From sequence record NC_027356.1: DNA of 64,000 nucleotides, one strand, 5' to 3'. A program made the translations under genes and the position numbers. The notes beneath the pieces were generated by a model. The model was given only the letters and a program-made list of their open reading frames with translations. It had not been told where the DNA came from and did no database searches. Shown one piece after another: positions 3,262 to 43,840 of the stretch. Origin of the DNA: Escherichia phage DT57C. Numbering within the stretch: the stretch's first letter is position 1; the number at the start of each line of letters is the position of its first letter.

Positions 3262-3498
3262 TTAAAGAGCTGTCTCTTTAATAGACTCCCACTTCTTGGG
3301 GTCTTTAAAACCAGGAAGCATATCTTCACTAACATCCCAGTTTTCTTCCGTAGAAAAGTCTGGCCATTCATTCCAGTTACCTTCCAGCTCTTCATACCAG
3401 GTATCCATTACCTCGCGATTAGAAAGTCGTGTATAGTCTCTAGCGGACTTATGAGTGCTAGCACGGTTAAAATCATTCTTTGCTACAAAATTACGCAT
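3262..3498 (-). CDS. hypothetical protein (78 aa, acidic/Trp-rich)
   Basis: ORF with GGAG RBS 6 nt upstream of ATG. Confidence 0.45.
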   Translation of the reverse strand: MRNFVAKNDFNRASTHKSARDYTRLSNREVMDTWYEELEGNWNEWPDFSTEENWDVSEDMLPGFKDPKKWESIKETAL

Positions 3499-3504
3499 AG
3501 TTTC

Positions 3505-3534
3505 TCCAAAAATATGAGGGGCTTTCGCCCCTCT
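3505..3534 (-). terminator. rho-independent terminator
   Basis: Hairpin gaggggc-tttc-gcccctc followed on the minus strand by a U-run; sits after the stop of 3541..4056. Confidence 0.55.
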
Positions 3535-3540
3535 TATCTA

Positions 3541-4056
3541 TTACTTCGCTTTACGTTTACGAGCTGGTTTAGCAGATTTACGAGCAGAATCACCCGTAAA
3601 TTTAATACCCACACCATAGCACAGAGCACGAACGTTATCTTTGCTATATTCTACGCCGAAGATATTTGGCTTAACAGAACCAAACTGGCCACGAGTATCA
3701 CGCAGTACATCTGCCGTTGGTTTACGCTTCTGGTTAACTGCTTTTTCGTAATCTTTCATGGCCATGCCATTACGAGGGAACAATTCAGCTCCAGCATTGA
3801 AACTCAGTGTTACTGGAACAGATTTGTGACCGTAACCCTGTACATAGGTTACGAGGCGGACTACAGAACGAGTAGCATTCTTAGCCTTCGGCTTTTGACG
3901 AATCGGAGCCGGACGATTCAGTGCCTGTGCAGCTTGAGCATCAGTAGGATGCTTGCGCAGGTGGCGTTCCAGACGAGCTTTGCGGTTAGCCTCAGTCTGT
4001 GGGAAAGTTTTAACTGCCGGAGCTGCTTGAGTTTTTGCGTTTTTCTGCTTAGCCAT
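3541..4056 (-). CDS. basic hypothetical protein (171 aa), possible nucleic-acid binding
   Basis: ORF with K/R-rich termini; consensus promoter at 4095-4123. Confidence 0.5.
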   Translation of the reverse strand: MAKQKNAKTQAAPAVKTFPQTEANRKARLERHLRKHPTDAQAAQALNRPAPIRQKPKAKNATRSVVRLVTYVQGYGHKSVPVTLSFNAGAELFPRNGMAMKDYEKAVNQKRKPTADVLRDTRGQFGSVKPNIFGVEYSKDNVRALCYGVGIKFTGDSARKSAKPARKRKAK

Positions 4057-4094
4057 TATTTGTTTTCCTTTTTGTTTATCAATTTATGAAGTAT

Positions 4095-4123
4095 ATTATA
4101 CGAGAATTTGAAGCGTTCAGCAA
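4095..4123 (-). promoter_or_regulatory. sigma70-type promoter (TTGCTG, 17 bp, TATAAT)
   Basis: Minus strand ttgctg-17-tataat. Confidence 0.5.
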
Positions 4124-4139
4124 ATGAATTTTTTAAAAA

Positions 4140-4418
4140 TTATCTGCCAACCATCTTAGCTTGTTCGGCATCTGAGACATATTGATACGCTCCTTTATTA
4201 TACGCTGGAGCAGTACACATTTTCTTACGCTCAATCTCTTCTTGAGCTTTTCTTTCGCGTTCAGCTAATTCTTCATCCAGATAAACTAAACGTTGTTCTG
4301 GAGGAGGTGGAAGACGTGTTTCTGGCTCACCAATATTAGCCTTTCTTATTTGACGAGGTGATTGTGCACGTTTTCTCAACGGTTTAAATCCTAATGAATT
4401 TGAGTTATAAATTCGCAT
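4140..4418 (-). CDS. hypothetical protein (92 aa)
   Basis: ORF with GAGGAGG RBS; promoter at 4446-4474. Confidence 0.45.
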   Translation of the reverse strand: MRIYNSNSLGFKPLRKRAQSPRQIRKANIGEPETRLPPPPEQRLVYLDEELAERERKAQEEIERKKMCTAPAYNKGAYQYVSDAEQAKMVGR

Positions 4419-4445
4419 AAAGCCCTCCTCACTTTCAATACGAAT

Positions 4446-4474
4446 ATTATACTAAATTAGAGGGCTTTAAGCAA
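4446..4474 (-). promoter_or_regulatory. sigma70-type promoter (TTGCTT, 17 bp, TATAAT)
   Basis: Minus strand ttgctt-17-tataat. Confidence 0.5.
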
Positions 4475-4494
4475 CTGAATTTTTAAATTATTTA

Positions 4495-4971
4495 TTACAT
4501 CTCCGCAAGTTCTTGCTCAGTAATAACTGTATTACACAGTGCATCTACAGCTTCATTACCACTAATACCAGAATGTCCTTTAACCTTAATAAAGGTAGGA
4601 TTAGTATTGTGAAAGTTGATATACTGCTGTGTTAATTTAAATGCTTCCTGCCAAAGTTCTAGATTAAGAGGAACCTCACCATCTGCTTTCTTCCAGCCTT
4701 TCCTTTGCCAAGAAAACATCCAGCTTTCCATGCCATTTTTGCAATAAGCAGAGTCAGTATAGATAACAATTGGTCTATTATCCTTTTTAACGGACCAACG
4801 TAGAGCTTCTACAATAGCTGTGAGTTCCATCTCATTATTTGTAGTTTTAGGACTATAGCCAGATTTAGAGCCTAGACGATCGTCATTATCATCATAGACA
4901 ATAAAACCCCAAGCACCGGGACCTGGGTTGGACTTACAAGCACCATCTGTGTAAATGTGGAAAACCGACAT
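4495..4971 (-). CDS. rnh: ribonuclease H (RNase HI)
   Basis: Classic RNase HI N-terminus IYTDGACKSNPGPGAWG and downstream TNNEMEL, YTDS, GHSG motifs. ATG at 4971 with GGAG RBS preferred over the track's TTG at 4983. Confidence 0.8.
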   Translation of the reverse strand: MSVFHIYTDGACKSNPGPGAWGFIVYDDNDDRLGSKSGYSPKTTNNEMELTAIVEALRWSVKKDNRPIVIYTDSAYCKNGMESWMFSWQRKGWKKADGEVPLNLELWQEAFKLTQQYINFHNTNPTFIKVKGHSGISGNEAVDALCNTVITEQELAEM

Positions 4972-5032
4972 TATTTGCTCCAATTAATAGTTACCCAATA
5001 GCCTTCACGCTAATTACGATCAAGTAAAATAT

Positions 5033-5062
5033 ATTATATTTGAAATTATACCTAATAAGCAA
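5033..5062 (-). promoter_or_regulatory. sigma70-type promoter (TTGCTT, 18 bp, TATAAT) embedded in an 18-bp inverted repeat
   Basis: Minus strand ttgctt-18-tataat; the -35 and -10 lie in the two arms of the palindrome 5034-5051 / 5063-5080. Confidence 0.5.
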
Positions 5063-5080
5063 GTATAATTTCAAATATAA
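5034..5080. repeat. perfect 18-bp inverted repeat with 11-bp spacer
   Basis: ttatatttgaaattatac (5034-5051) is the exact reverse complement of gtataatttcaaatataa (5063-5080). Confidence 0.9.
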
Positions 5081-5098
5081 TAGCCCCGAAGGGCTATT
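5068..5098 (-). terminator. rho-independent terminator after thyA
   Basis: Hairpin atagccc-cgaa-gggctat with A/T-rich tail on the minus strand, immediately after the thyA stop. Confidence 0.45.
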
Positions 5099-5102
5099 TA
5101 AG

Positions 5103-5942
5103 TTAAGAGGACATTTTAGCTTTAAGAGCTGGATGAGGATCGTACCCCTCTAAGTGGAATGACCAGGCTGCTGTATTATTTTCTAATAAGTCGTAAAGAT
5201 CTACAAATTCTGGCATTACTAGAGTTGGTAAAGAACGAGGTTTACGTTTTACCTGTTCTTCTACCTGTTCCATGTGGTCATTATAGATATGAGTATCACC
5301 GCCACTAAAGATAAGATAACGAGGTTTTAATCCTGTCAGTTTTGCTAATATATGCGTTAATAAAGCATAACTAGCGATATTGAAAGGTAAACCGAGGAAA
5401 CAATCCACAGAGCGTTGTGTCCATTTAAGATCTAAGTACCCATCATTACTTACATAGCACTGGAAGCCGTAGTGACAGGGTGGTAATGCCATTTTATCAA
5501 GTTCAGCTACGTTCCATGCAGAAACTAGATGTCTGCGGCCATGTGGATTATTCTTGAGTCCTTCAATAAGTTCTAGAATCTGATCTCGCCCACCAAAGTT
5601 ACGCCACTGTTTACCATATACTGGTCCTAGATTACCATTATCATATCCCATACTTATAGCTTGGTCTTCATAATTTGGAGTCCAGATGGTCCACTGTCCT
5701 TCGTCACGACCAAATGTGAATACACGTAGATCATGAAGATTTGTGGAACCAGACAAGAACCATAAAAGTTCTCCAACTACCGATTTCCAAGCTAGACGTT
5801 TAGTAGTTACAGCCGGGAACCCGTCACGTAGATCGAACTTAGCATAGGAATCAAAAATTGAAACTGTGCCTGTTCCTGTACGGTCATTACGGGGTTCACC
5901 TAGTAAAATTACATCTGTCAAAATTTTTAAGTATTGTTGCAT
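5103..5942 (-). CDS. thyA: thymidylate synthase
   Basis: 279 aa with catalytic-site region ALPPCHYGFQCYV and other ThyA hallmarks (DLGPVYG, RRHLVSAWN). Confidence 0.9.
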   Translation of the reverse strand: MQQYLKILTDVILLGEPRNDRTGTGTVSIFDSYAKFDLRDGFPAVTTKRLAWKSVVGELLWFLSGSTNLHDLRVFTFGRDEGQWTIWTPNYEDQAISMGYDNGNLGPVYGKQWRNFGGRDQILELIEGLKNNPHGRRHLVSAWNVAELDKMALPPCHYGFQCYVSNDGYLDLKWTQRSVDCFLGLPFNIASYALLTHILAKLTGLKPRYLIFSGGDTHIYNDHMEQVEEQVKRKPRSLPTLVMPEFVDLYDLLENNTAAWSFHLEGYDPHPALKAKMSS

Positions 5943-6475
5943 TAATAAGTAACCAATTCCTGTACAAATCGCAGGCTGTTATCACTGTTTGCGCCAGTTG
6001 CGTAAACTAATCGAGTAGATTCATAGTTGTAATCTAGAATCGTATTATCCAGATGTACATCTGCCTCTAGCTTCTGTTCGCTAAAGATTGTAGATACAAA
6101 AGCACTTTCTATATGCCCATGTTGGTACATCTCTAGAAGAAGATTAGCTCCGCCTAGAACTACTGTTTGCTGATCTTTTAAGAACGTGGGCAATGTATCC
6201 CCAATCTTAGAAATTGGGGTGTAAATATCATGTGTAATATCGTCTGGCAATGGACGATCAGCACGAATAAATAGGTCAGAAGTTCCAATCATACGTTCCC
6301 TAACGGCGTATGGAAGAGCTAAATAAGTACCAGCACCAATAATAATATTATTAGGATTTAGTACATCTAATTGTGAATAAAAAGCACCTAGTTCTTCTTT
6401 AAAAGAACCCCAGGGAAGCTTACCTCGGAGGCCGAACTCCCCATTCGGCCCAACTGCATACATTGCTGTAATCAC
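5942..6475 (-). CDS. frd: dihydrofolate reductase
   Basis: 177 aa; N-terminal DHFR-like MITAMYAVGPNGEFGLRGKLPW; stop/start overlap with thyA and nrdB. Confidence 0.75.
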   Translation of the reverse strand: MITAMYAVGPNGEFGLRGKLPWGSFKEELGAFYSQLDVLNPNNIIIGAGTYLALPYAVRERMIGTSDLFIRADRPLPDDITHDIYTPISKIGDTLPTFLKDQQTVVLGGANLLLEMYQHGHIESAFVSTIFSEQKLEADVHLDNTILDYNYESTRLVYATGANSDNSLRFVQELVTY

Positions 6476-7617
6476 AGGAAATCTCCAAATTCATTGCCCA
6501 GATCTTTCAGAGTATCAGTAGAAGTCTCAGTTACCTGACCTACACGATAGGCTGCACCAATCTGGATTTCTTGTGGAGCAGGCTGTAGAGAAGTAGTATC
6601 CAACCAGTTCATGATCCACGGAATAGGGTTTTTAGTGATTACTGGTAAGTGACTAGGCCATTCTACGCCAATGTGCATAAACGCGTTGCGTCCTACAAAG
6701 TACAGGTACTCTTCTAACAGTTCTGCATTCAAACCAATCAGGCTACGACCGTTGAAAATGAAATGACCCCATTCAATTTCAGTTTTCAGAGTTTTCAGGA
6801 GCTGTGCTGGTGCTTTAGCCACTGCTTCATCTACCAGATCTTTGTCAAACTGCTGGAACATAATCTGGATGATTGTTTTAGACATCTGAGTATGTAAGGC
6901 TTCATCTTTAGCAATCAATTGCAGATTTTTAGCAATACCTTGCAGAATATCGTTCTCTGCTAACGCAAAGGTACATGCAAAGGATGCGTAAAACTGCATT
7001 GCTTCCAGACCGTAGATTGCAAAATAAGCATCTAACAGTTTAGCCTGAGTTTCACGCTTAACTTCAGGGAACTCAGTTTCTGGATACGTATTGTCACCAC
7101 GATGATCACGTACTGCGATGAAATACTGACCTAACTGGTACAGTTCATCAAACAGTTCAACAGAATCTGCGATACGTGCGAATGCTTCTTGGTTTTTGGT
7201 TACAGAATCAATAAATTCTGCTGGATCAGTCAGCACATTACGAATAATATTACTATATGCACGGCTATGCAGATCTTCGAAGTAGCTCCACTGCTTGAGC
7301 ATACCTTCCAATTCTGGACGGCTTACCAGCGGCATAATAGCTGCTTCAGGCGCTCGACTGATAAAGGAATCAGTTTGAGTCTGCCATGCTAAGTTCAGGA
7401 GTGTGATTTCCTGAATTTCACGTGGGAGATTGGGCCATTGTTTCTTATCGGCTTCTAAACTGATTTCTGTCTCAGTCCAAAATTGAGAGCGAGCTAATAA
7501 CGCCAGCCTTTCCAGCTCTGGATGGGCTACTCGTACATAATCTGCGATACCTAGAGAATCACCGAGAAATAGATCTTTATTGGTATGATCCCAGTTTAAG
7601 TTAAGTAAAGTTGTCAT
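6472..7617 (-). CDS. nrdB: ribonucleotide reductase class Ia small subunit
   Basis: 381 aa; di-iron/tyrosyl radical protein features; AGGAG RBS. Confidence 0.85.
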   Translation of the reverse strand: MTTLLNLNWDHTNKDLFLGDSLGIADYVRVAHPELERLALLARSQFWTETEISLEADKKQWPNLPREIQEITLLNLAWQTQTDSFISRAPEAAIMPLVSRPELEGMLKQWSYFEDLHSRAYSNIIRNVLTDPAEFIDSVTKNQEAFARIADSVELFDELYQLGQYFIAVRDHRGDNTYPETEFPEVKRETQAKLLDAYFAIYGLEAMQFYASFACTFALAENDILQGIAKNLQLIAKDEALHTQMSKTIIQIMFQQFDKDLVDEAVAKAPAQLLKTLKTEIEWGHFIFNGRSLIGLNAELLEEYLYFVGRNAFMHIGVEWPSHLPVITKNPIPWIMNWLDTTSLQPAPQEIQIGAAYRVGQVTETSTDTLKDLGNEFGDFL

Positions 7618-7625
7618 TAGTTCTC

Positions 7626-8141
7626 CTATTTATCTGTGTTTCTAAGTAGTGTTGGATCTTTGGTTATAGAGAGGATTAAAGAATCTCGATACTCTATCGC
7701 CTCTTCTAGAGTTGGAAGAGTTTTCACGTATTCTTTTCCGTTAATGGATTTTCTAACTTGAAATCCAGACCCTTTCTTCCGAATATTCTTAGTACCCAAT
7801 ATATTGTTTTTACTGGTTTTTCTATTTTGACTATTTAACTGCCAGTCTGCTTCTCTTAGATTAGTCCACTTATAGTTTAGTGGATCTCCATCTATATGGT
7901 CAACCATAACTTTGGGTAAGTTTCCTGTCATGTACAGAAAAGCAATATTTTGTGCAGGGTACTTCTTACCCTTGATTTGTATTACTAAGTCTTTTCGGTT
8001 AGGATCTACTGAGTGTGGTTTTAAACAACCAGCAGGTAGTCCTCTTACTTTATTGTGTACTTCTTGGTTATTTAACCAAGTAAATGTTCCTTCATCTGGA
8101 TTATACTCCAGAATCCTTTTTAATTCATCTTGTGTTATCAA
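7626..8141 (-). CDS. HNH homing endonuclease
   Basis: HNH motif VDHIDGDPLNYKWTNLR plus AP2-like C-terminal region; inserted between nrdB and nrdA. Only start is TTG at 8141, with GGAG RBS 7 nt upstream. Confidence 0.75.
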   Translation of the reverse strand: MITQDELKRILEYNPDEGTFTWLNNQEVHNKVRGLPAGCLKPHSVDPNRKDLVIQIKGKKYPAQNIAFLYMTGNLPKVMVDHIDGDPLNYKWTNLREADWQLNSQNRKTSKNNILGTKNIRKKGSGFQVRKSINGKEYVKTLPTLEEAIEYRDSLILSITKDPTLLRNTDK

Positions 8142-8167
8142 AACTAATCTCCTTAACTAATAGAGAT

Positions 8168-8196
8168 ATTATAGCAAATCAGATAGCGATTAGCAA
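8168..8196 (-). promoter_or_regulatory. sigma70-type promoter (TTGCTA, 17 bp, TATAAT) for the HNH gene
   Basis: Minus strand ttgcta-17-tataat. Confidence 0.5.
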
Positions 8197-8204
8197 GTAA
8201 AATT

Positions 8205-8245
8205 TCAAAGAAAAAGGAGACCCGAAGATCTCCTTGTTTTTATTA
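8205..8245. terminator. rho-independent terminator after nrdA (bidirectional geometry)
   Basis: Hairpin aaggaga-cccgaag-tctcctt flanked by A-run on one side and T-run on the other. Confidence 0.6.
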
Positions 8246-10573
8246 AATAGTACAACCGCCTGATGCACAACCGGCTGCTTCTTCACCAGCCCCACCACCA
8301 TTTGCAGTGTTGAAGTTAGCATAATACCAAGTTTTCCACCCGTATTTAACAGCAGTCATGAAATCACGAACTACTACTGGGCCAGGAATAATTTCATTCT
8401 CAAACTTGGTGTAGTCATAGTACATATTCGTACTGATAGACTGACTGAAGAATTTCTGCATAGTTGCTACCCATTTGATCCATTCAATACGATCCACATC
8501 GTAAGCCAGTTTATAGCTCATGAGAGTATCCCAATCAGTTGCACCTGGAGCGATTGCAATTACTTTATTCACTGCACTACCCTTAATAGATACAATCTTA
8601 CGGGGTGGTTCAATAGAGTTAGTAACCCCTAACAGAACGGAAGAACTTTCTCCTGGCATCTGAGCAGTCAGAACAGAGTTACGCATACCGTATTTCAGAA
8701 TATCTGCACGCAGAGATTCCCAATCCATTTCTAGACCTACTGATACCAGCTCATCAACAGTTTTCTTGTACGTGTCGATTACCAGAGTTCCTTTGGATGG
8801 TTTAGTACGATTAAACCATTCACATGCACCTTGCTCTTTGGCTAGACGTACAGAGGCTTTATGCAGGAAGTAAGACAGTTTTTCAGCTTCACGATGAATC
8901 CAGTTACGTGCTTCAACGCCTTCATAAGCCAAACCTTCCGCCGCCATTGCACCTGCTGCGTTCATCAGACCAATACCAACGTTACGACGTTTCTTAGCTG
9001 TATATTCCATAGTTGGGAACGGATAATCCTGAATTTCAATAATTGTATCAACGAATTTCAGGAGGATGTAGCAAGTTTTTTCCCACTCAGCCAGAGATTC
9101 CATGCGTCCAAGTACAACACCACCTAAGTTACACAGAGATACTTCACCAATATCCTCCGGCTTCATTTGATCAAGTTGTTCTTTTGTTTTATACAGCTCT
9201 GTAATGTGGTGGAATGGGCGTGTAGGCTGATTAATTTCAAGGCATAAATTACTCATACGGATTGGATCAAGGAAGTTACCGTGACGATTAGATTCCCCGA
9301 TGTGGTGCGCATACATACGTCCTGTTTCCATTCTGATACGTAGCCAAGTATCTAGGATTTCTTTTGCAGAGACTTTAGGAGCTGCTGGAACTGTTTTTCC
9401 TTCATGGTCGATCTTTGTAAGAGATGCCACACGTTTCTCCGCTGCCACATAGATTTCTTCAAATTTAGCCTCGTCATCACTATAAAACGCTTCATGAACT
9501 TCTGGAGCATAGAAGTATGACATTAGCGTAATATCTTCATTTTTCAGATAACGTTTTAACAAAAGATTATTAAAGTTCAGAGAATAATCCATCTTATCGA
9601 TTTTATTCTCGTCTGTAGCACGTTGCTGCTTAACCTGCATCAATTGGATGATTTCAGGGTCAAAGTAAGGATAGGATACAGTAGCAGAACCACCACGAGT
9701 TTGCTGAGTATTAGCCTTTACTGATCGGTCAATGTGTCGATAATATGGCAGTTTTCCGGAATGCGGGAATGCCCCGTTTCGCACCGGATCAGCAATTGAT
9801 CGGCTTTCAAGATGATACCCGATTCCCGCTCTGGCTGCAACCATTTTGAAGACGATGTGTTCGGCTGTGTCGATTGAATCCAATGTGTCAGTGGAATCAA
9901 CGAGGCAACAACTAGCAAATCCACGGTCACTAGAGCGCAAGCCAACCAATGGCGGCGTAGGAACGTTGATCTTGTGGAGCGACATTGCATTGTAGAGATC
10001 GATTGCATCTAGAATTGTCCAATTAGGTTGAGATAACATCGCCATTGCCATACCCATATAGGCAAATTGCGGGGTTTCGTAAATTTCGCCAGTTGCGATA
10101 TTACGACGGGAATACTTATCAAAGAATTGTTTCAGTCCTCCACTAGTGAAAAGACGGTCGCGATCATGGTCGATAACCTGATTCAGAGCTTCAAATTGCT
10201 CATCGGTAATCCATGCACTCATGTCTTCCCATGCACCTACACTAACCATATGATCGTGGAAGAAGCGTAGGGAAGGTGGTTCGAAGGAATCATAAAGACG
10301 TTTACGCATCTGCGCAAGACGTAATTCCTTTGCGGGCACGTCGTATGCTGGGTTATCTTTGATAAGACTTTCAGCAGCTTTAATTAACGCATCCATCAGA
10401 GTATCGGAATCTACAACCCCTTTAGGTAGAGTTTTTTGAGCAGCCATAGTAATGGCTGACCAACTTACATCAACTGTTTTGCAACCATACTCTGCCCAAC
10501 CATTGAGTTTTTCAGGAGCAAAGTCTTCTACAGTACCGTCACGTTTAATTACTTTTTCAATGCGATGGCTCAT
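8243..10573 (-). CDS. nrdA: ribonucleotide reductase class Ia large subunit
   Basis: ATP-cone start MSHRIEKVIKRDGTVEDF, catalytic core, C-terminal redox Cys tail (GCASGGCTI). ATG at 10573 with AGGA-type RBS preferred over the track's start at 10678. Confidence 0.9.
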   Translation of the reverse strand: MSHRIEKVIKRDGTVEDFAPEKLNGWAEYGCKTVDVSWSAITMAAQKTLPKGVVDSDTLMDALIKAAESLIKDNPAYDVPAKELRLAQMRKRLYDSFEPPSLRFFHDHMVSVGAWEDMSAWITDEQFEALNQVIDHDRDRLFTSGGLKQFFDKYSRRNIATGEIYETPQFAYMGMAMAMLSQPNWTILDAIDLYNAMSLHKINVPTPPLVGLRSSDRGFASCCLVDSTDTLDSIDTAEHIVFKMVAARAGIGYHLESRSIADPVRNGAFPHSGKLPYYRHIDRSVKANTQQTRGGSATVSYPYFDPEIIQLMQVKQQRATDENKIDKMDYSLNFNNLLLKRYLKNEDITLMSYFYAPEVHEAFYSDDEAKFEEIYVAAEKRVASLTKIDHEGKTVPAAPKVSAKEILDTWLRIRMETGRMYAHHIGESNRHGNFLDPIRMSNLCLEINQPTRPFHHITELYKTKEQLDQMKPEDIGEVSLCNLGGVVLGRMESLAEWEKTCYILLKFVDTIIEIQDYPFPTMEYTAKKRRNVGIGLMNAAGAMAAEGLAYEGVEARNWIHREAEKLSYFLHKASVRLAKEQGACEWFNRTKPSKGTLVIDTYKKTVDELVSVGLEMDWESLRADILKYGMRNSVLTAQMPGESSSVLLGVTNSIEPPRKIVSIKGSAVNKVIAIAPGATDWDTLMSYKLAYDVDRIEWIKWVATMQKFFSQSISTNMYYDYTKFENEIIPGPVVVRDFMTAVKYGWKTWYYANFNTANGGGAGEEAAGCASGGCTI

Positions 10574-37325: not shown

Positions 37326-37560
37326 TTTTACTGATCCTAATGGGGTAGACTTAGACTTAGCTGAACCTACTAATTTCTATCATGTGGCTGTTGCTCAGCC
37401 TGATCTTAACAAAATTGTACTTAAAGTCGATATGTTTGGTAATGTGGAACATTGGGATGAGGAAGGATTCTTGAACTTATGTAATGAGTCTCAAGACCCA
37501 ACTCTCAAAGCCCTGTTAGCCGTATACAATTTAGGTATTATCAAAGGAAGTAAAGATTAA
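37288..37560 (+). CDS. hypothetical protein (90 aa), GTG start
   Basis: GAGGAG RBS 7 nt before GTG; overlaps the dut 3' end. Confidence 0.4.
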   Translation: MEKVDLEAQEVSNFTDPNGVDLDLAEPTNFYHVAVAQPDLNKIVLKVDMFGNVEHWDEEGFLNLCNESQDPTLKALLAVYNLGIIKGSKD

Positions 37561-37565
37561 TAAAA

Positions 37566-37600
37566 AACCCCCAGTGGACAATCCACTGGGGGTTTTTTAT
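37566..37600. terminator. bidirectional rho-independent terminator between early and late blocks
   Basis: Hairpin cccccagtgg-acaa-tccactggggg flanked by A-run upstream and T-run downstream. Confidence 0.7.
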
Positions 37601-37782
37601 TTATTTACCTACCTTTAACTCAGCAATCTCGGCTTACGTTGCCTAGATATTCGGTATCAACGTTTACACAGTGTGCGTCGTATTCCACAGCATGAGATGT
37701 GTATAGAGTTCCTTCTGCTCCAGTAAGTACCACCTGGCTAACACCCGCATACTTACCGGAGCCTTTCAGCGCCTTGAGTGAA

Positions 37783-40149
37783 TTATTTCGCTGCCTTCAG
37801 CGCGGCTATCTCTGCCTTCAAATCCTCGATTTGCTTATTGAGATACTGCACACAACCCATCAAATCCATAACGATCGGGTTTACATCCACCGACGGCCTG
37901 TCGCGGGTCTTACCACCGATAATAGCGTTAGTCTCTGGGTCCACCTCCACATCGTACGTCTCTTCTCGATGTTTGATGTATTGAGGTGCAATCGCTTCAG
38001 CCTCCTCGGCAATTATGCCGAAGCGGACGCGCTCCTGCACATCGTCCTTATACACGTAGTTCACCATGCGCATTTGTTCAATACGTGCAACCGCTTCTGT
38101 AACGTCTGCATTGACAATATCTTTCTTAAAGTCCCGCCCCGATGTGCCTTGCAAGGCAAGAACACCACCAGATGAAGGCCAGTTGATTGTAATGCCAGTG
38201 CCGTTTCCCTTCTCAAAATATTTATAGATCTGGTTACTATTGATATTAACCGAATCCCACATCGTGCGGAAATTACCAGCCGGGACTGAATCTTTTGCGT
38301 TGTGTAGAACGAAAGACTTCACCGGACCGTCGGTAGTCGGGCGAATGGTTATATCACGGGCCCACACTACTCCGCCTGTTCCCGCTCCGGGGATCTCCAC
38401 GACGGTATCTCGGTACGCGCCCGACGCGTCATATGATTGCAACTTAAAATTGCCCGAAGCGTCGTTAATCCCCATACGCCAGCGTACTTTATCGGCGGAA
38501 TCCGCCCAACATACACCGTCAAAATCGGAGTTCACCGAGTTCACAACTATACTATTCGGTATAGTTAGTTTACCTGTTTCGTCAAAATCCAGATTCGCGC
38601 TTCTTTGTGTGGTACTGTTCGTTACGGAAATACGAGCAGAATAGTTACCGCCGATATCGGCACGGGCACAGAAACTAGCTTCAGCCTCATTGGCGCCACT
38701 AATCTTGTACAATGAGAATATGTTACCACCTTGAGCAATTGTGCCGTTAGCTGGACGTGTCGCATCACCATTGATCACACTCCAAGACGTATTCGCCGCC
38801 ACGAACCCGCCTGACGCTCGAATAACCCACACACCCATGAAGTTATTTGGACGCAACTCCGTTACGGTCCGACCATAGATCGCGCTGACCCTCGAGGCGT
38901 CCAGGTTAATGATGCCGTAGGAGACCGCGCCGCTACTAACAGTTAGGTTGCTTGGCGTCCGATATTGCGAATCCGCGCCACCAGACCCATGGAACGCGCC
39001 ACTTTCACCGTTGATAATACTTGCGGACCCGCCGCCGTGTAATTCGACGCGGCCTGTGATGTTAGGTGCTCCTGATTCGTAGATATACCCATCGTTGCCA
39101 CTTTGCCCGCCGTCCCCCCGGCAGAACAAGCCGAATATTGACCCAGGCTGAACACCATTACGGTCTGGCACTCGGAAGGTCGTTGTGCCGTCACCAGTAG
39201 AATACTTGCCGCGCTGATTTGGGTTAGCCAGCCAGGTAGCGTCACTAATTGGCGATAGCATTTGCGCATACGCCCAGAGTTCGGGCCAGTCAGCACGATT
39301 CAACAACTGACCATCACTCACCACCTCGTACGGCTGAATGTATGCGCGACTATCCCGCAGGTGAAAGTCACCTACCCCATAGTTCATAACGCCATTCATG
39401 GTAGGTCCAACTGTACCAGTGTTAATCTTATTCTCTACCCAACGTTTGGTTACAGCATCGTAGTCCCCCACAGGGTCCCCCGCAAGAGGGGTGGACCCTT
39501 GTGGTCTTACAACGTCCCATAAAGCTTCTCTATTATTTACCCCGGTACCCCCTTGTTCAACCGGGAGTGCTAACCACTCATTCTCTGTATCACTATAAAC
39601 TCCCCAAGTACCATTATTTTGAATAGTTAATCTAGAATTCTTATCACCACTGTAGATTATGGTTTCTGTTTCGGACTCCTGACTAAATCTATCGAGTTCC
39701 AGTGCGGTTTTAGCCCCCTCTAGTGTAGAAGAACCAGTACCACCTTGAGCAATCGTAATAGCCTTAGTAAGCGCATTTAATTCTGTAATATCATTATTAG
39801 CACCTTTAGCAGCTTTAGCTTCGAGACTGGTATCAACTTCATCTAGCTTAGTATTAATACCTTCAATAGAGGTATTAATGCCGCCTAAAGCGGTATTAAT
39901 ATTACCAACAGACTCGTTAATACTGCCAATAGATGTATCGATTCCATCAATACGAGTATCAATTCCAGTTAAACGAGTATTTAATTCTTCTTTATCTATA
40001 GTGTAGTTAGATATTTGAAGATACTTGGAGGTTAGTGCAACAGCACCAGCCTCCCCATCAACAGAGAAAACGCCTGCAACCGCAGCATCTCTGTTAACTA
40101 CAACGTATGGCGCCATTGCGCCGGATTTAGGCATTAATGGTCTAGACAT
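37783..40149 (-). CDS. lateral tail fibre protein with C-terminal intramolecular chaperone domain (LtfB-like)
   Basis: 788 aa; C-terminal block (RVRFGIIAEEAE...PSVDVNPIVMDLMGCVQ...coiled coil) typical of autoproteolytic fibre chaperones; shares a ~100-aa central block with the adjacent fibre gene. Confidence 0.75.
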   Translation of the reverse strand: MSRPLMPKSGAMAPYVVVNRDAAVAGVFSVDGEAGAVALTSKYLQISNYTIDKEELNTRLTGIDTRIDGIDTSIGSINESVGNINTALGGINTSIEGINTKLDEVDTSLEAKAAKGANNDITELNALTKAITIAQGGTGSSTLEGAKTALELDRFSQESETETIIYSGDKNSRLTIQNNGTWGVYSDTENEWLALPVEQGGTGVNNREALWDVVRPQGSTPLAGDPVGDYDAVTKRWVENKINTGTVGPTMNGVMNYGVGDFHLRDSRAYIQPYEVVSDGQLLNRADWPELWAYAQMLSPISDATWLANPNQRGKYSTGDGTTTFRVPDRNGVQPGSIFGLFCRGDGGQSGNDGYIYESGAPNITGRVELHGGGSASIINGESGAFHGSGGADSQYRTPSNLTVSSGAVSYGIINLDASRVSAIYGRTVTELRPNNFMGVWVIRASGGFVAANTSWSVINGDATRPANGTIAQGGNIFSLYKISGANEAEASFCARADIGGNYSARISVTNSTTQRSANLDFDETGKLTIPNSIVVNSVNSDFDGVCWADSADKVRWRMGINDASGNFKLQSYDASGAYRDTVVEIPGAGTGGVVWARDITIRPTTDGPVKSFVLHNAKDSVPAGNFRTMWDSVNINSNQIYKYFEKGNGTGITINWPSSGGVLALQGTSGRDFKKDIVNADVTEAVARIEQMRMVNYVYKDDVQERVRFGIIAEEAEAIAPQYIKHREETYDVEVDPETNAIIGGKTRDRPSVDVNPIVMDLMGCVQYLNKQIEDLKAEIAALKAAK

Positions 40150-40154
40150 TTTAT

Positions 40155-40190
40155 TACCTTGTAGGAGGGCCGAAGCCCCTTTCTTTTTTA
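40155..40190. terminator. GC hairpin with T-tract on the plus strand (possible terminator)
   Basis: gggc-cgaa-gccc followed by tttctttttt; orientation ambiguous. Confidence 0.3.
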
Positions 40191-43100
40191 TTCCTTAGAT
40201 TCTAGTTCTGCAATACGCGCTTCCAGAGCCGCTATTTTTGCATTAAGCGCCTGAACACACCCCATCAGGTCCATGACGATTGGGTTGACGTCGACGGAAG
40301 GTCTGTCCCTTGTCTTCTCGCCAATCTTATTCCCTTCTTCGTCAAGAATGTCCTCGTAAGATACCTGATTATGTTTGATGTATTGCGGAGCGATCAACTC
40401 TGCTTCTTCAGCAATCACACCGAATCGAACACGTTCTTGTTCATCATCTTTGTAGACGAAGTTTACAAGGCGTTGCCCGTTAATTCGGTCCATAGCCTCT
40501 TGGGCATCAGCGTCTGTAACATCCTTTTTGTACTCAATGCCCGACGTACCTTGTAGCGCGATGGCCCCGCCGGTGGTTGGGAACGAGACGATGATCTGCC
40601 CCGCTTGGTTGCCATCCCCGCGTCGCCTGATAAGGTTAACGCCAGACACATTCCCATCTGTACCAGATACCTCAATAATCGTACTCCCGCCGATCTGCGT
40701 AGCAGGTGTGTTATACCGATTTGATTTAAAGTTTATGCCAGGCCATCCCTGGTTCTGGATAGTAAGATTACCATCGGAGTAAATTGCTCCCTTAGAGTGC
40801 AGGTTTTCCGCTGAGAAAGTGCCTAGATCATTAAAGTCGTAAACGGCGGTGCGGTTGGCGGTGGCGTTATAAACGTTCAAACGTGCGTAGTGTTCAGCCC
40901 CGATCTGCGCTCGTATACGCCAGCTCATTTGCGCTTCTCTAACGCCGTTAACGTTATAACGTGAAATGATTTCGCCGCCGTCAGCAGTTGTACCGTCAGC
41001 TGGACGCGTCGCATCACCGTTAATCACAGACCACGACGTATTCGCAGCAACAAATCCGCCCGATGCACGAATCACCCAAACGCCAGTGAATGCTTTGGGT
41101 CTGACTTCTGTTGAACCTCTACCATAGACTGGGCTTGAATTTGATGCGAAGAATTCAAACCCAGAAGGATACGTCGCTGCAGTACCGTCAGCTGCAGATA
41201 TCTCTGACAACCTTTTATATTTTGCTTGTGATAAGACAGCAGAGAATGCACCTGTCCCTGTGTTGGCTTCATAAATAGTGCCTGTTGACGCGTAAACCAA
41301 TCGGCCAAATGAGCCTGTAATGTTTGGTGCAGCACTGTCAAGAATGGTCCCACCAGTAGATGACGCCCCGCCATCACCACGCCCAAACAGTGCAGATATT
41401 GAACCTGTTTGAACGCCGTTTCTGTCGGGCACACGGAAAGTCGTTGAGCCATCGCCAAGAGAATACTGACCGCGCTTTGTTGGGTCAGCAAGCCAATCAG
41501 CATCAGAAATAGGGGAAAGCATTTGAGCATAAGCCCACAACTCAGGCCAATCAGCCCTGTTAAGAAGCTGGCCATCAGAAACTACCTCATAAGGTTGAAT
41601 ATACGCACGGCTATCACGAAGGTGGAAATCACCTACACCATAGTTCATGACACCATTCATTGTTGGCCCTACTGTACCGGTGTTAATCTTATTCTCTACC
41701 CAACGCTTAGTAACAGCATCGTAGTCGCCAACAGGATCACCAGCCAGCGGCGTGGAGCCAATCGGACGCACGTTAAGCCATGCGGCAGCACGATCTGCCA
41801 AATCCGAAAGGTTATTAGCTTTTAATAAGTAATCAGTATCTGACTGAGTTTTAGCGTCTGCTAAAGCAGAATCAACCTCCACCTTAGTATACGTGGTAGC
41901 AATATCAGCCTTATCTGCTAAAGCAGAATCAACTTCCGTCTTAGTATACGTGGTAGCAATATCAGCCTTATCTGCTAAAGCAGAATCAACCTCCGTAGTA
42001 CTATATAACTCGAGGGCTATACGGGCGTCTTCTTTAGTTGTTGCACCAGTACCGCCTTGGTTAATACTAACAGTACCTTGTAGTGAGGTATCAATTTCAA
42101 CGTTACCAGTTATAGCATCTGGAGAGATACCATTAACTGTCACAACATAAGGAATCTGATCTTTAATAACGCCAGCATCTTCTTCGCCTTTAGTTGGTGC
42201 ACGGAATGCCTGTCCTTGCATCATATCTGGTAGACGGAAGGTTGTGGAGCCATCACCCGTAGAGAAGTAAAGAGACGCACCGGCTTGCCATTCAGCTTCT
42301 GATACAGAAGGAATTAAGCCAGCCTCAATAGCCTCCCAAGTATCTGGATAGTCTACACGAAGAACTTCACGGCCATCAGCAGGAAGAACACCAGGGTAGC
42401 CAACACCTGAATCTTTATCATAAGGGAACCAAGTAACTTCACCCAGCCATAAAGAGGGGTTACCACCAGGAAGAGTAATCTGTACGTTACCTGCGTCATC
42501 TGCACGAACGTTGTTAACAGAAGTTAGCTTTTGCTCTGTTTCTACTAACTCTAATACTGGAGTCTCAGCAGTTCCAGCTACTTTGTACCACCCATATTTT
42601 GAGTTAGTTTGGTTCCAGACTAGAACCTTTTCGTCTAGCACACGGTTTACAACATCAGCATCAGCTTCTGCTTTAGTCTTATAAACTTTGATAAAACCAG
42701 AAATATCTACTTTATCAAGTTTACTATCAACAATCTGAGTTGCACGATCTGCCTCAGCTTTAGCACGATCTGCCTCAGTAGTAGCATCGATAGCTTTATC
42801 ACCGGCTTCAGTAGCAGAACCAGCAGCATTAGTTTCAGAAATCTTAGCGTTTAGTTCTGATTGCCTTGCAGCAGCAGCATGTTCGCCAGCAGTGGTAGCA
42901 GCAGCATCAGCCCCATCTTTAGCTGTTTCAGCACCAGTCTTAGCAGCTTCTGCAGCTGTTTGAGCTTGTTGCGCAGCTGTTTTAGCTTGTTCAGCTAGTA
43001 AACGACTTTGTTCAGCATTCTGCGCTGCCAATTCTGCAGAGTCTCTAAATCCCTCTGATTCTTGCGCAGAAGCTGCAGAATTATCTGCACTACCCTTAGA

Positions 43101-43418
43101 TAAACCAGCTTGCCTTTCAGATTCAGCAGCAGAAGCCGCTGATTGAGAAGCAGATTCCTCAGAAGCTCCAGCAGAAATAGCAGCTTCATTTTCAGAATCC
43201 TTTGCATTTAGTTCAGATTCTTTTGCTGCTATTTCAGAACCTTTAGCAGCAGCAGCGGATCCTGCAGAGGCCTCTACAGCAGCAGTTAATTCACCAGCAG
43301 TAATAGAACTAATAGAATTACCTAAAACTACTGTATATTTAGGATACTTACTAGCAGTAGTTGTAGTGTCATCTATGTTCAGAATCTGCTGTACAATAAT
43401 TTTAGTTTTAAGTGCCAT
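40188..43418 (-). CDS. L-shaped lateral tail fibre protein (pb1/LtfA-like) with C-terminal chaperone domain
   Basis: 1076 aa; Ala/Glu/Ser-rich N-terminal repeats, internal tandem 19-aa repeats, same C-terminal chaperone block as the neighbouring fibre. Confidence 0.75.
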   Translation of the reverse strand: MALKTKIIVQQILNIDDTTTTASKYPKYTVVLGNSISSITAGELTAAVEASAGSAAAAKGSEIAAKESELNAKDSENEAAISAGASEESASQSAASAAESERQAGLSKGSADNSAASAQESEGFRDSAELAAQNAEQSRLLAEQAKTAAQQAQTAAEAAKTGAETAKDGADAAATTAGEHAAAARQSELNAKISETNAAGSATEAGDKAIDATTEADRAKAEADRATQIVDSKLDKVDISGFIKVYKTKAEADADVVNRVLDEKVLVWNQTNSKYGWYKVAGTAETPVLELVETEQKLTSVNNVRADDAGNVQITLPGGNPSLWLGEVTWFPYDKDSGVGYPGVLPADGREVLRVDYPDTWEAIEAGLIPSVSEAEWQAGASLYFSTGDGSTTFRLPDMMQGQAFRAPTKGEEDAGVIKDQIPYVVTVNGISPDAITGNVEIDTSLQGTVSINQGGTGATTKEDARIALELYSTTEVDSALADKADIATTYTKTEVDSALADKADIATTYTKVEVDSALADAKTQSDTDYLLKANNLSDLADRAAAWLNVRPIGSTPLAGDPVGDYDAVTKRWVENKINTGTVGPTMNGVMNYGVGDFHLRDSRAYIQPYEVVSDGQLLNRADWPELWAYAQMLSPISDADWLADPTKRGQYSLGDGSTTFRVPDRNGVQTGSISALFGRGDGGASSTGGTILDSAAPNITGSFGRLVYASTGTIYEANTGTGAFSAVLSQAKYKRLSEISAADGTAATYPSGFEFFASNSSPVYGRGSTEVRPKAFTGVWVIRASGGFVAANTSWSVINGDATRPADGTTADGGEIISRYNVNGVREAQMSWRIRAQIGAEHYARLNVYNATANRTAVYDFNDLGTFSAENLHSKGAIYSDGNLTIQNQGWPGINFKSNRYNTPATQIGGSTIIEVSGTDGNVSGVNLIRRRGDGNQAGQIIVSFPTTGGAIALQGTSGIEYKKDVTDADAQEAMDRINGQRLVNFVYKDDEQERVRFGVIAEEAELIAPQYIKHNQVSYEDILDEEGNKIGEKTRDRPSVDVNPIVMDLMGCVQALNAKIAALEARIAELESKE
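41855..42000. repeat. tandem 57-bp repeats (about 2.5 copies) inside the fibre gene
   Basis: cttagtatacgtggtagcaatatcagccttatctgctaaagcagaatcaac... recurs at 41883 and 41940; encodes TEVDSALADKADIATTYTK repeats. Confidence 0.85.
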
Positions 43419-43840
43419 TATTGAGTTACTCCATCGCTGATGTATACTTTACCTTCCATAATACGGAAAGAACTGACTTCAGAGCCAATTACATCACGAG
43501 TCATTAGGATATCATAATAACCCGCAAAGCGTTGTCTTGGGTTATACTTATCACGTTCTTTAGATGCTTTTTCACCAATATTAGTAACGTCTGCAACGGA
43601 AAGACTAATTGCAGCAGCACCTTGAGCAGCATCAATAATACTAGTAGTAAAAGATGCCAAAGTTTCCGCGTTCTCGTCTAAGCTAGACTTAATAGTTCCA
43701 CGAAGTGAATAACCTGTTAGATTAACAGGTATTTCAGAAGGAGGGTATACACTATCATCAACATCCATAAATTGCATGATAAGACCATAAGGCACTTTCT
43801 CATCAACAACAATATCAATTACTCTATTTTCAGTACTCAT
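43418..43840 (-). CDS. hypothetical tail/baseplate protein (140 aa)
   Basis: ORF in the tail module, start overlapping the upstream stop. Confidence 0.5.

Follow-up and report, generated by a model that had tools for sequence, protein, structure and literature searches.

The branched lateral tail fibre of the T5-like coliphages DT57C and DT571/2 has been in the literature since 2016, when Golomidova et al. (Viruses 8:26; PMC4728585) gave the two genes the names ltfA and ltfB, and proposed a fibre in which LtfB is borne by LtfA. We analysed this locus in a 64,000-nucleotide (nt) stretch of Escherichia phage DT57C (sequence record NC_027356.1; the window), and all coordinates below are positions within that stretch. 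The 2016 study likened the N-terminus of LtfA to T5 pb1, LtfA 223-471 to phiEco32 gp14 and LtfB 1-45 to phiEco32 gp15, and it gave genetic and electron microscopy evidence for attachment of LtfB through LtfA. LtfA and LtfB were reported to recognise different O-antigens (O22-like and O81); an ltfB opal mutant was unable to grow on E. coli HS3-104, an ltfA mutant lost both hosts, and recombination within ltfA moved host specificity. The repeats shared by ltfA and ltfB were named as an expected deletion hot spot, and two fusions, DT530(1) and DT571/2-ABF, were isolated. Subsequently the attachment of LtfA to LtfC was solved and the lasso structure of the LtfA N-terminus described by cryo-electron microscopy (cryo-EM), and the branched fibre was restated (Ayala et al. 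2023, Nat Commun 14:8205; PMC10713586). No LtfB density was seen on the tail core in that study, consistent with attachment of LtfB through LtfA.

Three other described systems resemble parts of this fibre. In T5 the single lateral tail fibre protein (Ltf) pb1, of 1396 amino acids (aa), occupies the same genomic position, attaches through a homologous N-terminus and ends in a self-cleaving chaperone of the same family. T5, however, has one gene and an unbranched fibre, whereas DT57C has two genes and two receptor-binding cassettes, and the remainder of pb1 is unrelated to the DT57C fibre (22% identity; PMC10713586, Table 1). The kuravirus fibre is likewise made of two proteins (gp14 and gp15 in phiEco32; proximal gp12 and distal gp13 in SU10), and in SU10 the long fibre consists of a gp12 trimer and a gp13 trimer joined non-covalently (PMC9509320). 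Here gp14 matches LtfA 223-471 and the N-terminus of gp15 matches that of LtfB. Moreover, phiEco32 gp15 carries the same whole cassette as LtfB, comprising the two conserved stretches described below as block 1 (69% identity) and block 2 together with the C-terminal Peptidase_S74 (S74) domain. The kuravirus proximal protein lacks a block 1/S74 cassette of its own, whereas in LtfA the docking region is followed by a second, complete cassette. At its N-terminus the kuravirus fibre binds a podovirus adaptor in place of the T5 LtfC ring. Finally, the T7-related podoviruses phiKT and PGT2, isolated from the same horse-gut system, carry the same cassette, with 96.5% protein identity in block 1, and phiKT also shares the specificity segment of LtfA (80-90%) and the host E. 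coli 4s (PMC4728585; PMC10743462). Each of these podoviruses nevertheless has just a single fibre, whose N-terminus attaches to the tail differently, and the distal part after block 2 is unrelated (18-30% identity).

The DT57C locus matches the published LtfA-LtfB system

Two adjacent, intact open reading frames lie 38 nt apart on the minus strand, to which all fibre-gene features below belong, and their lengths and ends are exactly those reported in an earlier note on this stretch, which had called them tail-fibre genes. The longer, ltfA (40188-43418), encodes the 1076-aa lateral tail-fibre protein A, the arm joined to the tail, and is annotated ltfA in DT571/2. The shorter, ltfB (37783-40149), encodes the 788-aa lateral tail-fibre protein B, the branch borne by LtfA. 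Both lie downstream of ltfC (43418-43840, 140 aa; Pfam PF23926 LtfC, E = 2.8e-15), whose stop codon overlaps the ltfA start and whose product is the collar protein that forms the ring anchoring the LtfA N-termini (PMC10713586). Thus two large adjacent fibre genes follow ltfC in a T5-like backbone.

LtfA matches chain d of PDB entry 8hqz ('L-shaped tail fiber assembly', 1076 aa), an entry from the cryo-EM work on phage DT57C (PMC10713586), over residues 1-1076 with 2338 bits, and is identical over the 957 residues shown. The locus is 99.3% identical to the DT530 ltf sequence and 96.8% identical to ltfB-ltfA-ltfC of DT571/2, the divergent part of ltfA excepted. LtfB 195-669 (475 aa) is 100% identical to the DT571/2 protein; the N-terminal divergence of the two LtfB proteins begins at residue 65, in agreement with what PMC4728585 reports for DT57C. 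The 19-aa repeats of LtfA and the LtfB divergence at residues 65-90 also agree with the published account. The locus is therefore the same system as the one described in 2016 and 2023, and nothing structural differs.

We read the locus as the lateral tail-fibre operon ltfC-ltfA-ltfB of DT57C, a T5-like coliphage, encoding a branched, two-receptor fibre whose arms carry diverged cassettes rather than the products of a recent duplication, and we put the probability of this reading at about 0.93. That the genes encode a branched T5-like fibre with two receptor specificities, as the earlier note had surmised, has been demonstrated experimentally for this phage family (PMC4728585) and restated since (PMC10713586). 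The note had also allowed that the block shared by the two genes might be an assembly artefact, namely a collapsed repeat, or that one gene might be a pseudogene. Nothing was found in favour of a collapsed repeat, a chimeric one or a pseudogene, and the chance of any of them is negligible: both reading frames are intact, the two block 1 copies differ at 55 of 258 nt and so are no collapsed repeat, the DT571/2 record, an independent one, shows two genes arranged in the same way, the 8hqz model was built with the sequence that LtfA has here, and mutants of both genes have phenotypes (PMC4728585).

Attachment and proposed docking regions

The N-terminal halves of LtfA and LtfB (200-530 residues) are unrelated to each other and come from different sources. 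LtfA 1-80 (43179-43418) resembles T5 pb1 and forms the attachment region, which is inserted in the ring of LtfC; its identity to T5 Ltf is 63% over 80 aa (PMC4728585). In agreement with this, PHROG 24369, a 1396-position tail-fibre profile, matches LtfA 3-229, and the chain matched end to end by LtfA (8hqz_d) has its N-terminus modelled in the LtfC ring. Tail-fibre PHROGs match both proteins.

The middle of LtfA (223-471; 42006-42752) resembles kuravirus proximal fibres and is the proposed docking site for LtfB. It aligns with phiEco32 gp14 239-508 at 44% identity (E = 1e-53) and with SU10 gp12 (PDB 7z47_D) over residues 248-472 (E = 4.9e-46). The complementary homology, to the kuravirus distal fibre, is found at the other protein: LtfB 1-45 (40015-40149) is an adaptor homologous to the phiEco32 gp15 N-terminus, with 32 of 45 residues identical (PMC4728585), and would be the plug that inserts into LtfA. 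In our comparison LtfB 1-36 aligns with the gp15 N-terminus, within a BLASTP alignment of E = 7e-99. A PDB sequence search with the N-terminal 69 aa of LtfB found no relative; the docking joint is thus one without a solved homologue, and its geometry is what we infer.

Within the gp14-like region, LtfA 342-400 (42200-42400) contains a second, older collar-like motif (PGVLPADGREVLRVDYPDTWEA...STGDGSTTFRLPD), which shares 34% identity with the C-terminal half of block 1 (E = 3e-08). Each protein also carries short tandem repeats. In LtfA, a 57-nt unit is present in 2.5 copies at 41857-41996 (95% matches; Tandem Repeats Finder) and encodes the 19-aa motif VDSALADKADIATTYTK(T/V)E at residues 477-533; its copy number is altered in the DT571/2-ABF fusion (PMC4728585). 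In LtfB, 21-nt (heptad) tandem repeats at 39851-39980 (residues ~57-100) encode repeats of the GI(D/N)T.I.G type, and they sit exactly where the LtfB proteins of DT57C (788 aa) and DT571/2 (767 aa) diverge and differ by 21 residues. This suggests slippage of repeat number in the LtfB shaft.

A shared cassette of conserved blocks and variable segments

Over their C-terminal ~690 residues LtfA and LtfB align at 49% identity (BLASTP E = 0). Within this region the earlier note had recognised about 100 nearly identical residues. The peptide it quoted is present in both proteins, and the identity is in fact perfect over an unbroken 86 residues (STPLAGDP...SPISDA), here called block 1, which lies at 41499-41756 in ltfA (LtfA 555-640) and at 39238-39495 in ltfB (LtfB 219-304). 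The note's coordinates were close for ltfB and ran about 70 nt too far at the upper end for ltfA. A further conserved stretch that the note did not contain, block 2 (GVWVIRASGGFVAANTSWSVINGDATRPA), comprises 29 aa identical in both proteins and encoded by DNA of 81.6% identity, at 40998-41084 in ltfA (LtfA 779-807) and 38749-38835 in ltfB (LtfB 439-467).

The regions between and after these blocks have diverged, as had been claimed for the distal regions. The LtfA segment between the blocks (~681-778; 41085-41378) is the receptor-specificity determinant for the O22-like O-antigen of E. coli 4s: PMC4728585 placed the host-specificity determinant in this inter-block region and noted 82% identity to phiKT, which was grown on the same host. 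In 40-residue sliding windows, we found 80-90% identity of this segment to the phiKT fibre as compared with 25-35% to DT571/2 LtfA. On its block 1 side the segment is bounded by a collar-like extension of that block. The corresponding LtfB segment (~345-438; 38836-39117), with 18-44% identity to LtfA in windows of the same size, is by its position the presumed specificity determinant for the O81-type host HS3-104 (PMC4728585). We also considered whether LtfB shares its specificity segment with PGT2, which uses the same host HS3-104; this was unsupported, identity in the segment being 38-55%. Since the variable segment between the blocks maps to the published specificity region, the specificity segment has a conserved block on either side. 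The blocks serve as a structural framework and also, both in evolution and in laboratory work, as the homology arms through which exchange takes place.

Both proteins end in a Peptidase_S74 intramolecular chaperone, in agreement with the chaperone/autoproteolysis block proposed earlier for both C-termini. Pfam PF13884 matches LtfB 671-724 with 41.2 bits and LtfA 961-1012 with 32.1 bits, against a curated gathering cut-off of 22 bits. The chaperones span LtfA 959-1076 (40188-40544) and LtfB 670-788 (37783-38142), and in both the motif QGT followed by SG(R/I)(D/E)(F/Y)KKD is present, at S959 of LtfA and S670 of LtfB. Cleavage is predicted before Ser959, between QGT and SGIEYKKD, and before Ser670, between QGT and SGRDFKKD; the same site was predicted, with self-cleaving pfam13884 domains, in PMC4728585. 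Judged by these motifs and domain matches, both proteins would cleave themselves at these serines.

Divergence and origin of the shared blocks

Block 1 is identical in the two proteins but not in the DNA. The earlier note had put nucleotide identity of the repeat at about 90%, a figure that did not hold: identity is 78.7% inside the 86 codons, and blastn of ltfA against ltfB gave 76.3% over 393 nt, 79.3% over 116 nt and, in the chaperone domain, 66.7% over 225 nt. The longest exact match between the genes is 26 nt. As many as 49 of the 86 block 1 codons differ, all synonymously, and some of the changes take two steps (AGT/TCT for serine, CGT/AGG for arginine). By the Nei-Gojobori method the proportion of synonymous differences (pS) between the copies is 0.80, past saturation, and the number of identical codons (37 of 86) falls within the 33-39.5 expected under independent codon choice.

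A tblastn search found block 1 in 239 phage records. Protein identity reaches 90% or more in 121 of these, and only 14 records have two copies. Its holders include T5-like siphoviruses, Wifcevirus myoviruses, 45-kb siphoviruses, the T7-related phiKT and PGT2 and the T1-like LL5, and kuraviruses carry it at ~68% identity. At the DNA level the nearest relatives of the ltfA copy are in PH204 (91%), T5_ev219 (89.5%) and AKFV33 (88%), and those of the ltfB copy, outside DT571/2, are in VSe12 (86%) and NG_A1 (85.7%). Among 32 distinct block 1 copies from the fetched loci, the paralog in the same genome ranks only 12th and 15th by DNA identity. The two copies therefore do not form a high-identity repeat: they are 78.7% identical to each other as compared with 86-91% to copies in other phages.

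Three further observations bear on the origin of the cassettes. Homology to the fibres of other phages starts ~15 residues before block 1. In AKFV33, the gene that contains block 1 is the LtfB-like orf135, where the block follows closely on the N-terminal adaptor. Also, the GC content at third codon positions (GC3) is 0.13-0.16 in the first 250 ltfA codons (0.13-0.3 across the T5-like 5' half) as compared with 0.5-0.6 in the C-terminal cassettes of both genes, the GC content of the window being 0.398, and the cassettes look compositionally foreign to the T5 backbone.

The earlier note had suggested that the two genes arose by duplication or recombination. A recent in-genome tandem duplication of one fibre gene, with the distal receptor-binding parts diverging later, would account for two adjacent same-strand genes with collinear homology over ~690 residues and perfectly identical stretches of 86 and 29 aa. 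However, a recent event sits poorly with saturated synonymous sites in a protein-identical block of only 78.7% DNA identity, with twelve to fifteen blocks in other phages that are closer in DNA than the paralog, with N-terminal regions of 200-530 residues that are unrelated and of different source, and with a GC3 of 0.52 in one copy and 0.38 in the other, and we regard it as very improbable. Together, the closer DNA relatives elsewhere, the unrelated N-terminal halves, the point at which homology starts, the rise in GC3 and the placement of the block in AKFV33 argue that two cassette alleles were acquired as modules, and speak against a recent duplication. Recombination, the other half of the suggestion, therefore stands in the form of modular acquisition, which fits the data as far as these sequence comparisons go. 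On the same comparisons we take the blocks to be an old, protein-conserved module and the two copies to be long-diverged alleles of it.

Two side observations were made among the related sequences. T5-like ltf sequence with 83-85% DNA identity occurs in records that bear the names Corynebacterium phage CPphiVTCCBPA_418 (PQ773600.1) and Listeria phage LM 4-11-1 / LM 4-14-1; mislabelling or contamination of these records is more probable than real host jumps. In addition, Salmonella phage SP3 (MG387042.1) encodes at 4321-7569 a full-length LtfA homologue, which matches residues 1-1076 at 71% identity and has both the gp14-like docking region and the cassette. The 12 kb examined contained a single block 1 copy, and SP3 may have an LtfA-type fibre without an LtfB partner.

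Deletion fusions between ltfA and ltfB

The earlier note had proposed that the direct repeat is a substrate for deletion. Both deposited fusion genes were aligned with their parents in three-way alignments. In DT571/2-ABF the switch from ltfB to ltfA falls within an 11-nt identity, CCATAGTTCAT, in block 1. The same 11-mer is common to both DT57C genes, where the equivalent positions are 39377-39387 paired with 41638-41648, and the mapped crossover agrees with the deletion start of 71916 given in PMC4728585. In DT530(1) the fusion follows ltfB exactly up to alignment column 203 and ltfA exactly from column 209, which places the crossover in a 5-nt interval (ACCCA; 38825-38829 paired with 41074-41078) at the edge of, and inside, block 2. 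Since both junctions map within the shared blocks, the repeats are real deletion substrates, as had been proposed.

The DT571/2-ABF protein was described as LtfA 1-663 joined to LtfB 288-767 (PMC4728585); in the DNA, the switch comes earlier, at the codons for MNYG (LtfA ~593, wild-type numbering). At the protein level the junction is ambiguous because the block is identical in protein. Whereas the published account speaks of 'long direct nucleotide repeats' and 'identical sequences', the DNA identity found here is 77-82%, with the 26-nt maximum given above. Both crossovers fell on very short exact matches within DNA of ~80% identity.

Protein identity of the two blocks

The ltfA and ltfB copies of block 1 show no amino-acid difference in either DT57C or DT571/2, at 79-80% DNA identity. 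By comparison, the 218 other pairs in the group at 88% or higher with saturated synonymous sites show 2-14 amino-acid differences each. When the first 78 codons were compared, the minimum among the other pairs was one difference, as against none for ltfA/ltfB.

One explanation would be that the protein identity of the blocks is actively kept within one virion, either because both arms use a common partner or folding factor or because synonymous recoding is favoured to lower ltfA-ltfB deletion. The absence of any difference among 86 residues despite randomised synonymous sites, when all 218 other saturated pairs differ, speaks for this, as does the fact that inter-block deletions occur and impair growth on O-antigen hosts (PMC4728585). 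Against it, the block core is near-invariant in all phages, some pairs differ at a single residue, and the four pairs without any difference count as a single evolutionary event. Codon identity likewise reveals no avoidance beyond saturation, and the idea that codons were selected to differ more than by chance, as recombination avoidance would require, was rejected. Furthermore, the LtfA and LtfB blocks of Salmonella phage Kenya-K38 are only ~60% identical, indicating that a two-arm fibre needs no identical blocks and weakening the notion that branching requires them. We therefore consider active maintenance unlikely. If true, selection would here be acting on the DNA identity of repeats at a host-range locus of a phage.

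The Kenya-K38 genes themselves (OQ291035.1, 3329-8769) are annotated as split open reading frames, the LtfA-like gene at 3329-4837 and 5109-6563 and the LtfB-like gene at 6603-7829 and 8149-8769. This points to frameshifts, sequencing errors or a degraded double-fibre locus.

Flanking genes and intergenic elements

Upstream of the fibre genes lie plus-strand genes for an SbcC-like protein, D14, a flap endonuclease and dUTPase, and pb4- and pb3-like tail genes lie beyond the fibre genes, which is the T5 arrangement. The annotated synteny of the DT571/2 locus is sbcC-hjc-exo-dut / ltfB-ltfA-ltfC-pb4-pb3. Between the convergent dut-side operon and ltfB is a bidirectional terminator (37559-37601), a 20-bp GC-rich hairpin with T/A runs on both sides.

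The spacer between ltfA and ltfB (40150-40187) also holds a short GC hairpin (40163-40184), with a UUCG-type loop and the coding-strand sequence AGGGGCUUCGGCCCU. It lies just upstream of the ltfB ribosome-binding region; on the coding strand no U-run follows it, and a T-run is present on the opposite strand. Rather than acting as a terminator of transcription, this hairpin could modulate how ltfB is translated or how stable the mRNA is.

Proposed fibre architecture

In the architecture that we propose, LtfA trimers sit in the LtfC ring at the tail tip, anchored there by N-termini like that of pb1, and the gp14-like middle of LtfA would dock the gp15-like N-terminus of LtfB trimers, giving a branched fibre. 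On each arm the cassette runs from block 1 (collar-like) through the variable specificity segment, block 2 and a variable distal part to the Peptidase_S74 chaperone, which would cleave itself off after folding. The variable segments differ between the two arms, which so bind different O-antigens, and the phage can thereby pass the O-antigen layer of two host serotypes before binding BtuB. The cassette circulates among coliphages of many unrelated kinds, and the shared blocks make up its framework, which is under structural constraint. As direct repeats of ~79% identity placed 2.26 kb apart, the blocks also permit rare in-frame crossovers at short identities, deleting the interval and fusing ltfA to ltfB.

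Block 1 together with the GDG(S/T)TTFR(V/L)PD motif that follows it has a sequence pattern like that of a phage tail collar domain. The Pfam Collar match of whole LtfA (25 bits) stems from a separate motif at residues 385-400, outside the shared block, and an NCBIfam scan gave no meaningful match. Several results weigh against the proposed reading of the locus. In the LtfB block region, Pfam Collar (PF07484) scored 17.9 bits, below the cut-off of 24, and covered only residues 107-124 of the fragment searched. An AlphaFold2 monomer of LtfB 195-669, built from a 61-sequence alignment, had a mean predicted confidence (pLDDT) of 52, with block 1 below 50, and Foldseek of this model against the PDB returned no match with E below 0.3. 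On the experimental side, the branch itself was never resolved structurally, only the LtfA N-terminus and weak fibre-like density having been seen (PMC10713586), and the O81 specificity of LtfB was shown genetically in DT571/2, a genome other than DT57C (PMC4728585). The low AlphaFold2 confidence can be explained by the cassette, which is expected to be an obligate trimer. A collar fold of blocks 1 and 2 would thus rest on a Pfam match below threshold.

Relative to the literature, the present analysis adds that the repeats have diverged to ~79% identity, that the fusions arose at identities of 11 nt and 5 nt, and that closer DNA relatives elsewhere favour modular acquisition. For laboratory purposes the cassette is useful for engineering, as two conserved blocks flank an exchangeable specificity segment. 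For the phage, a branched fibre with two receptor-binding cassettes means that one lytic virion covers two O-antigen serotypes.

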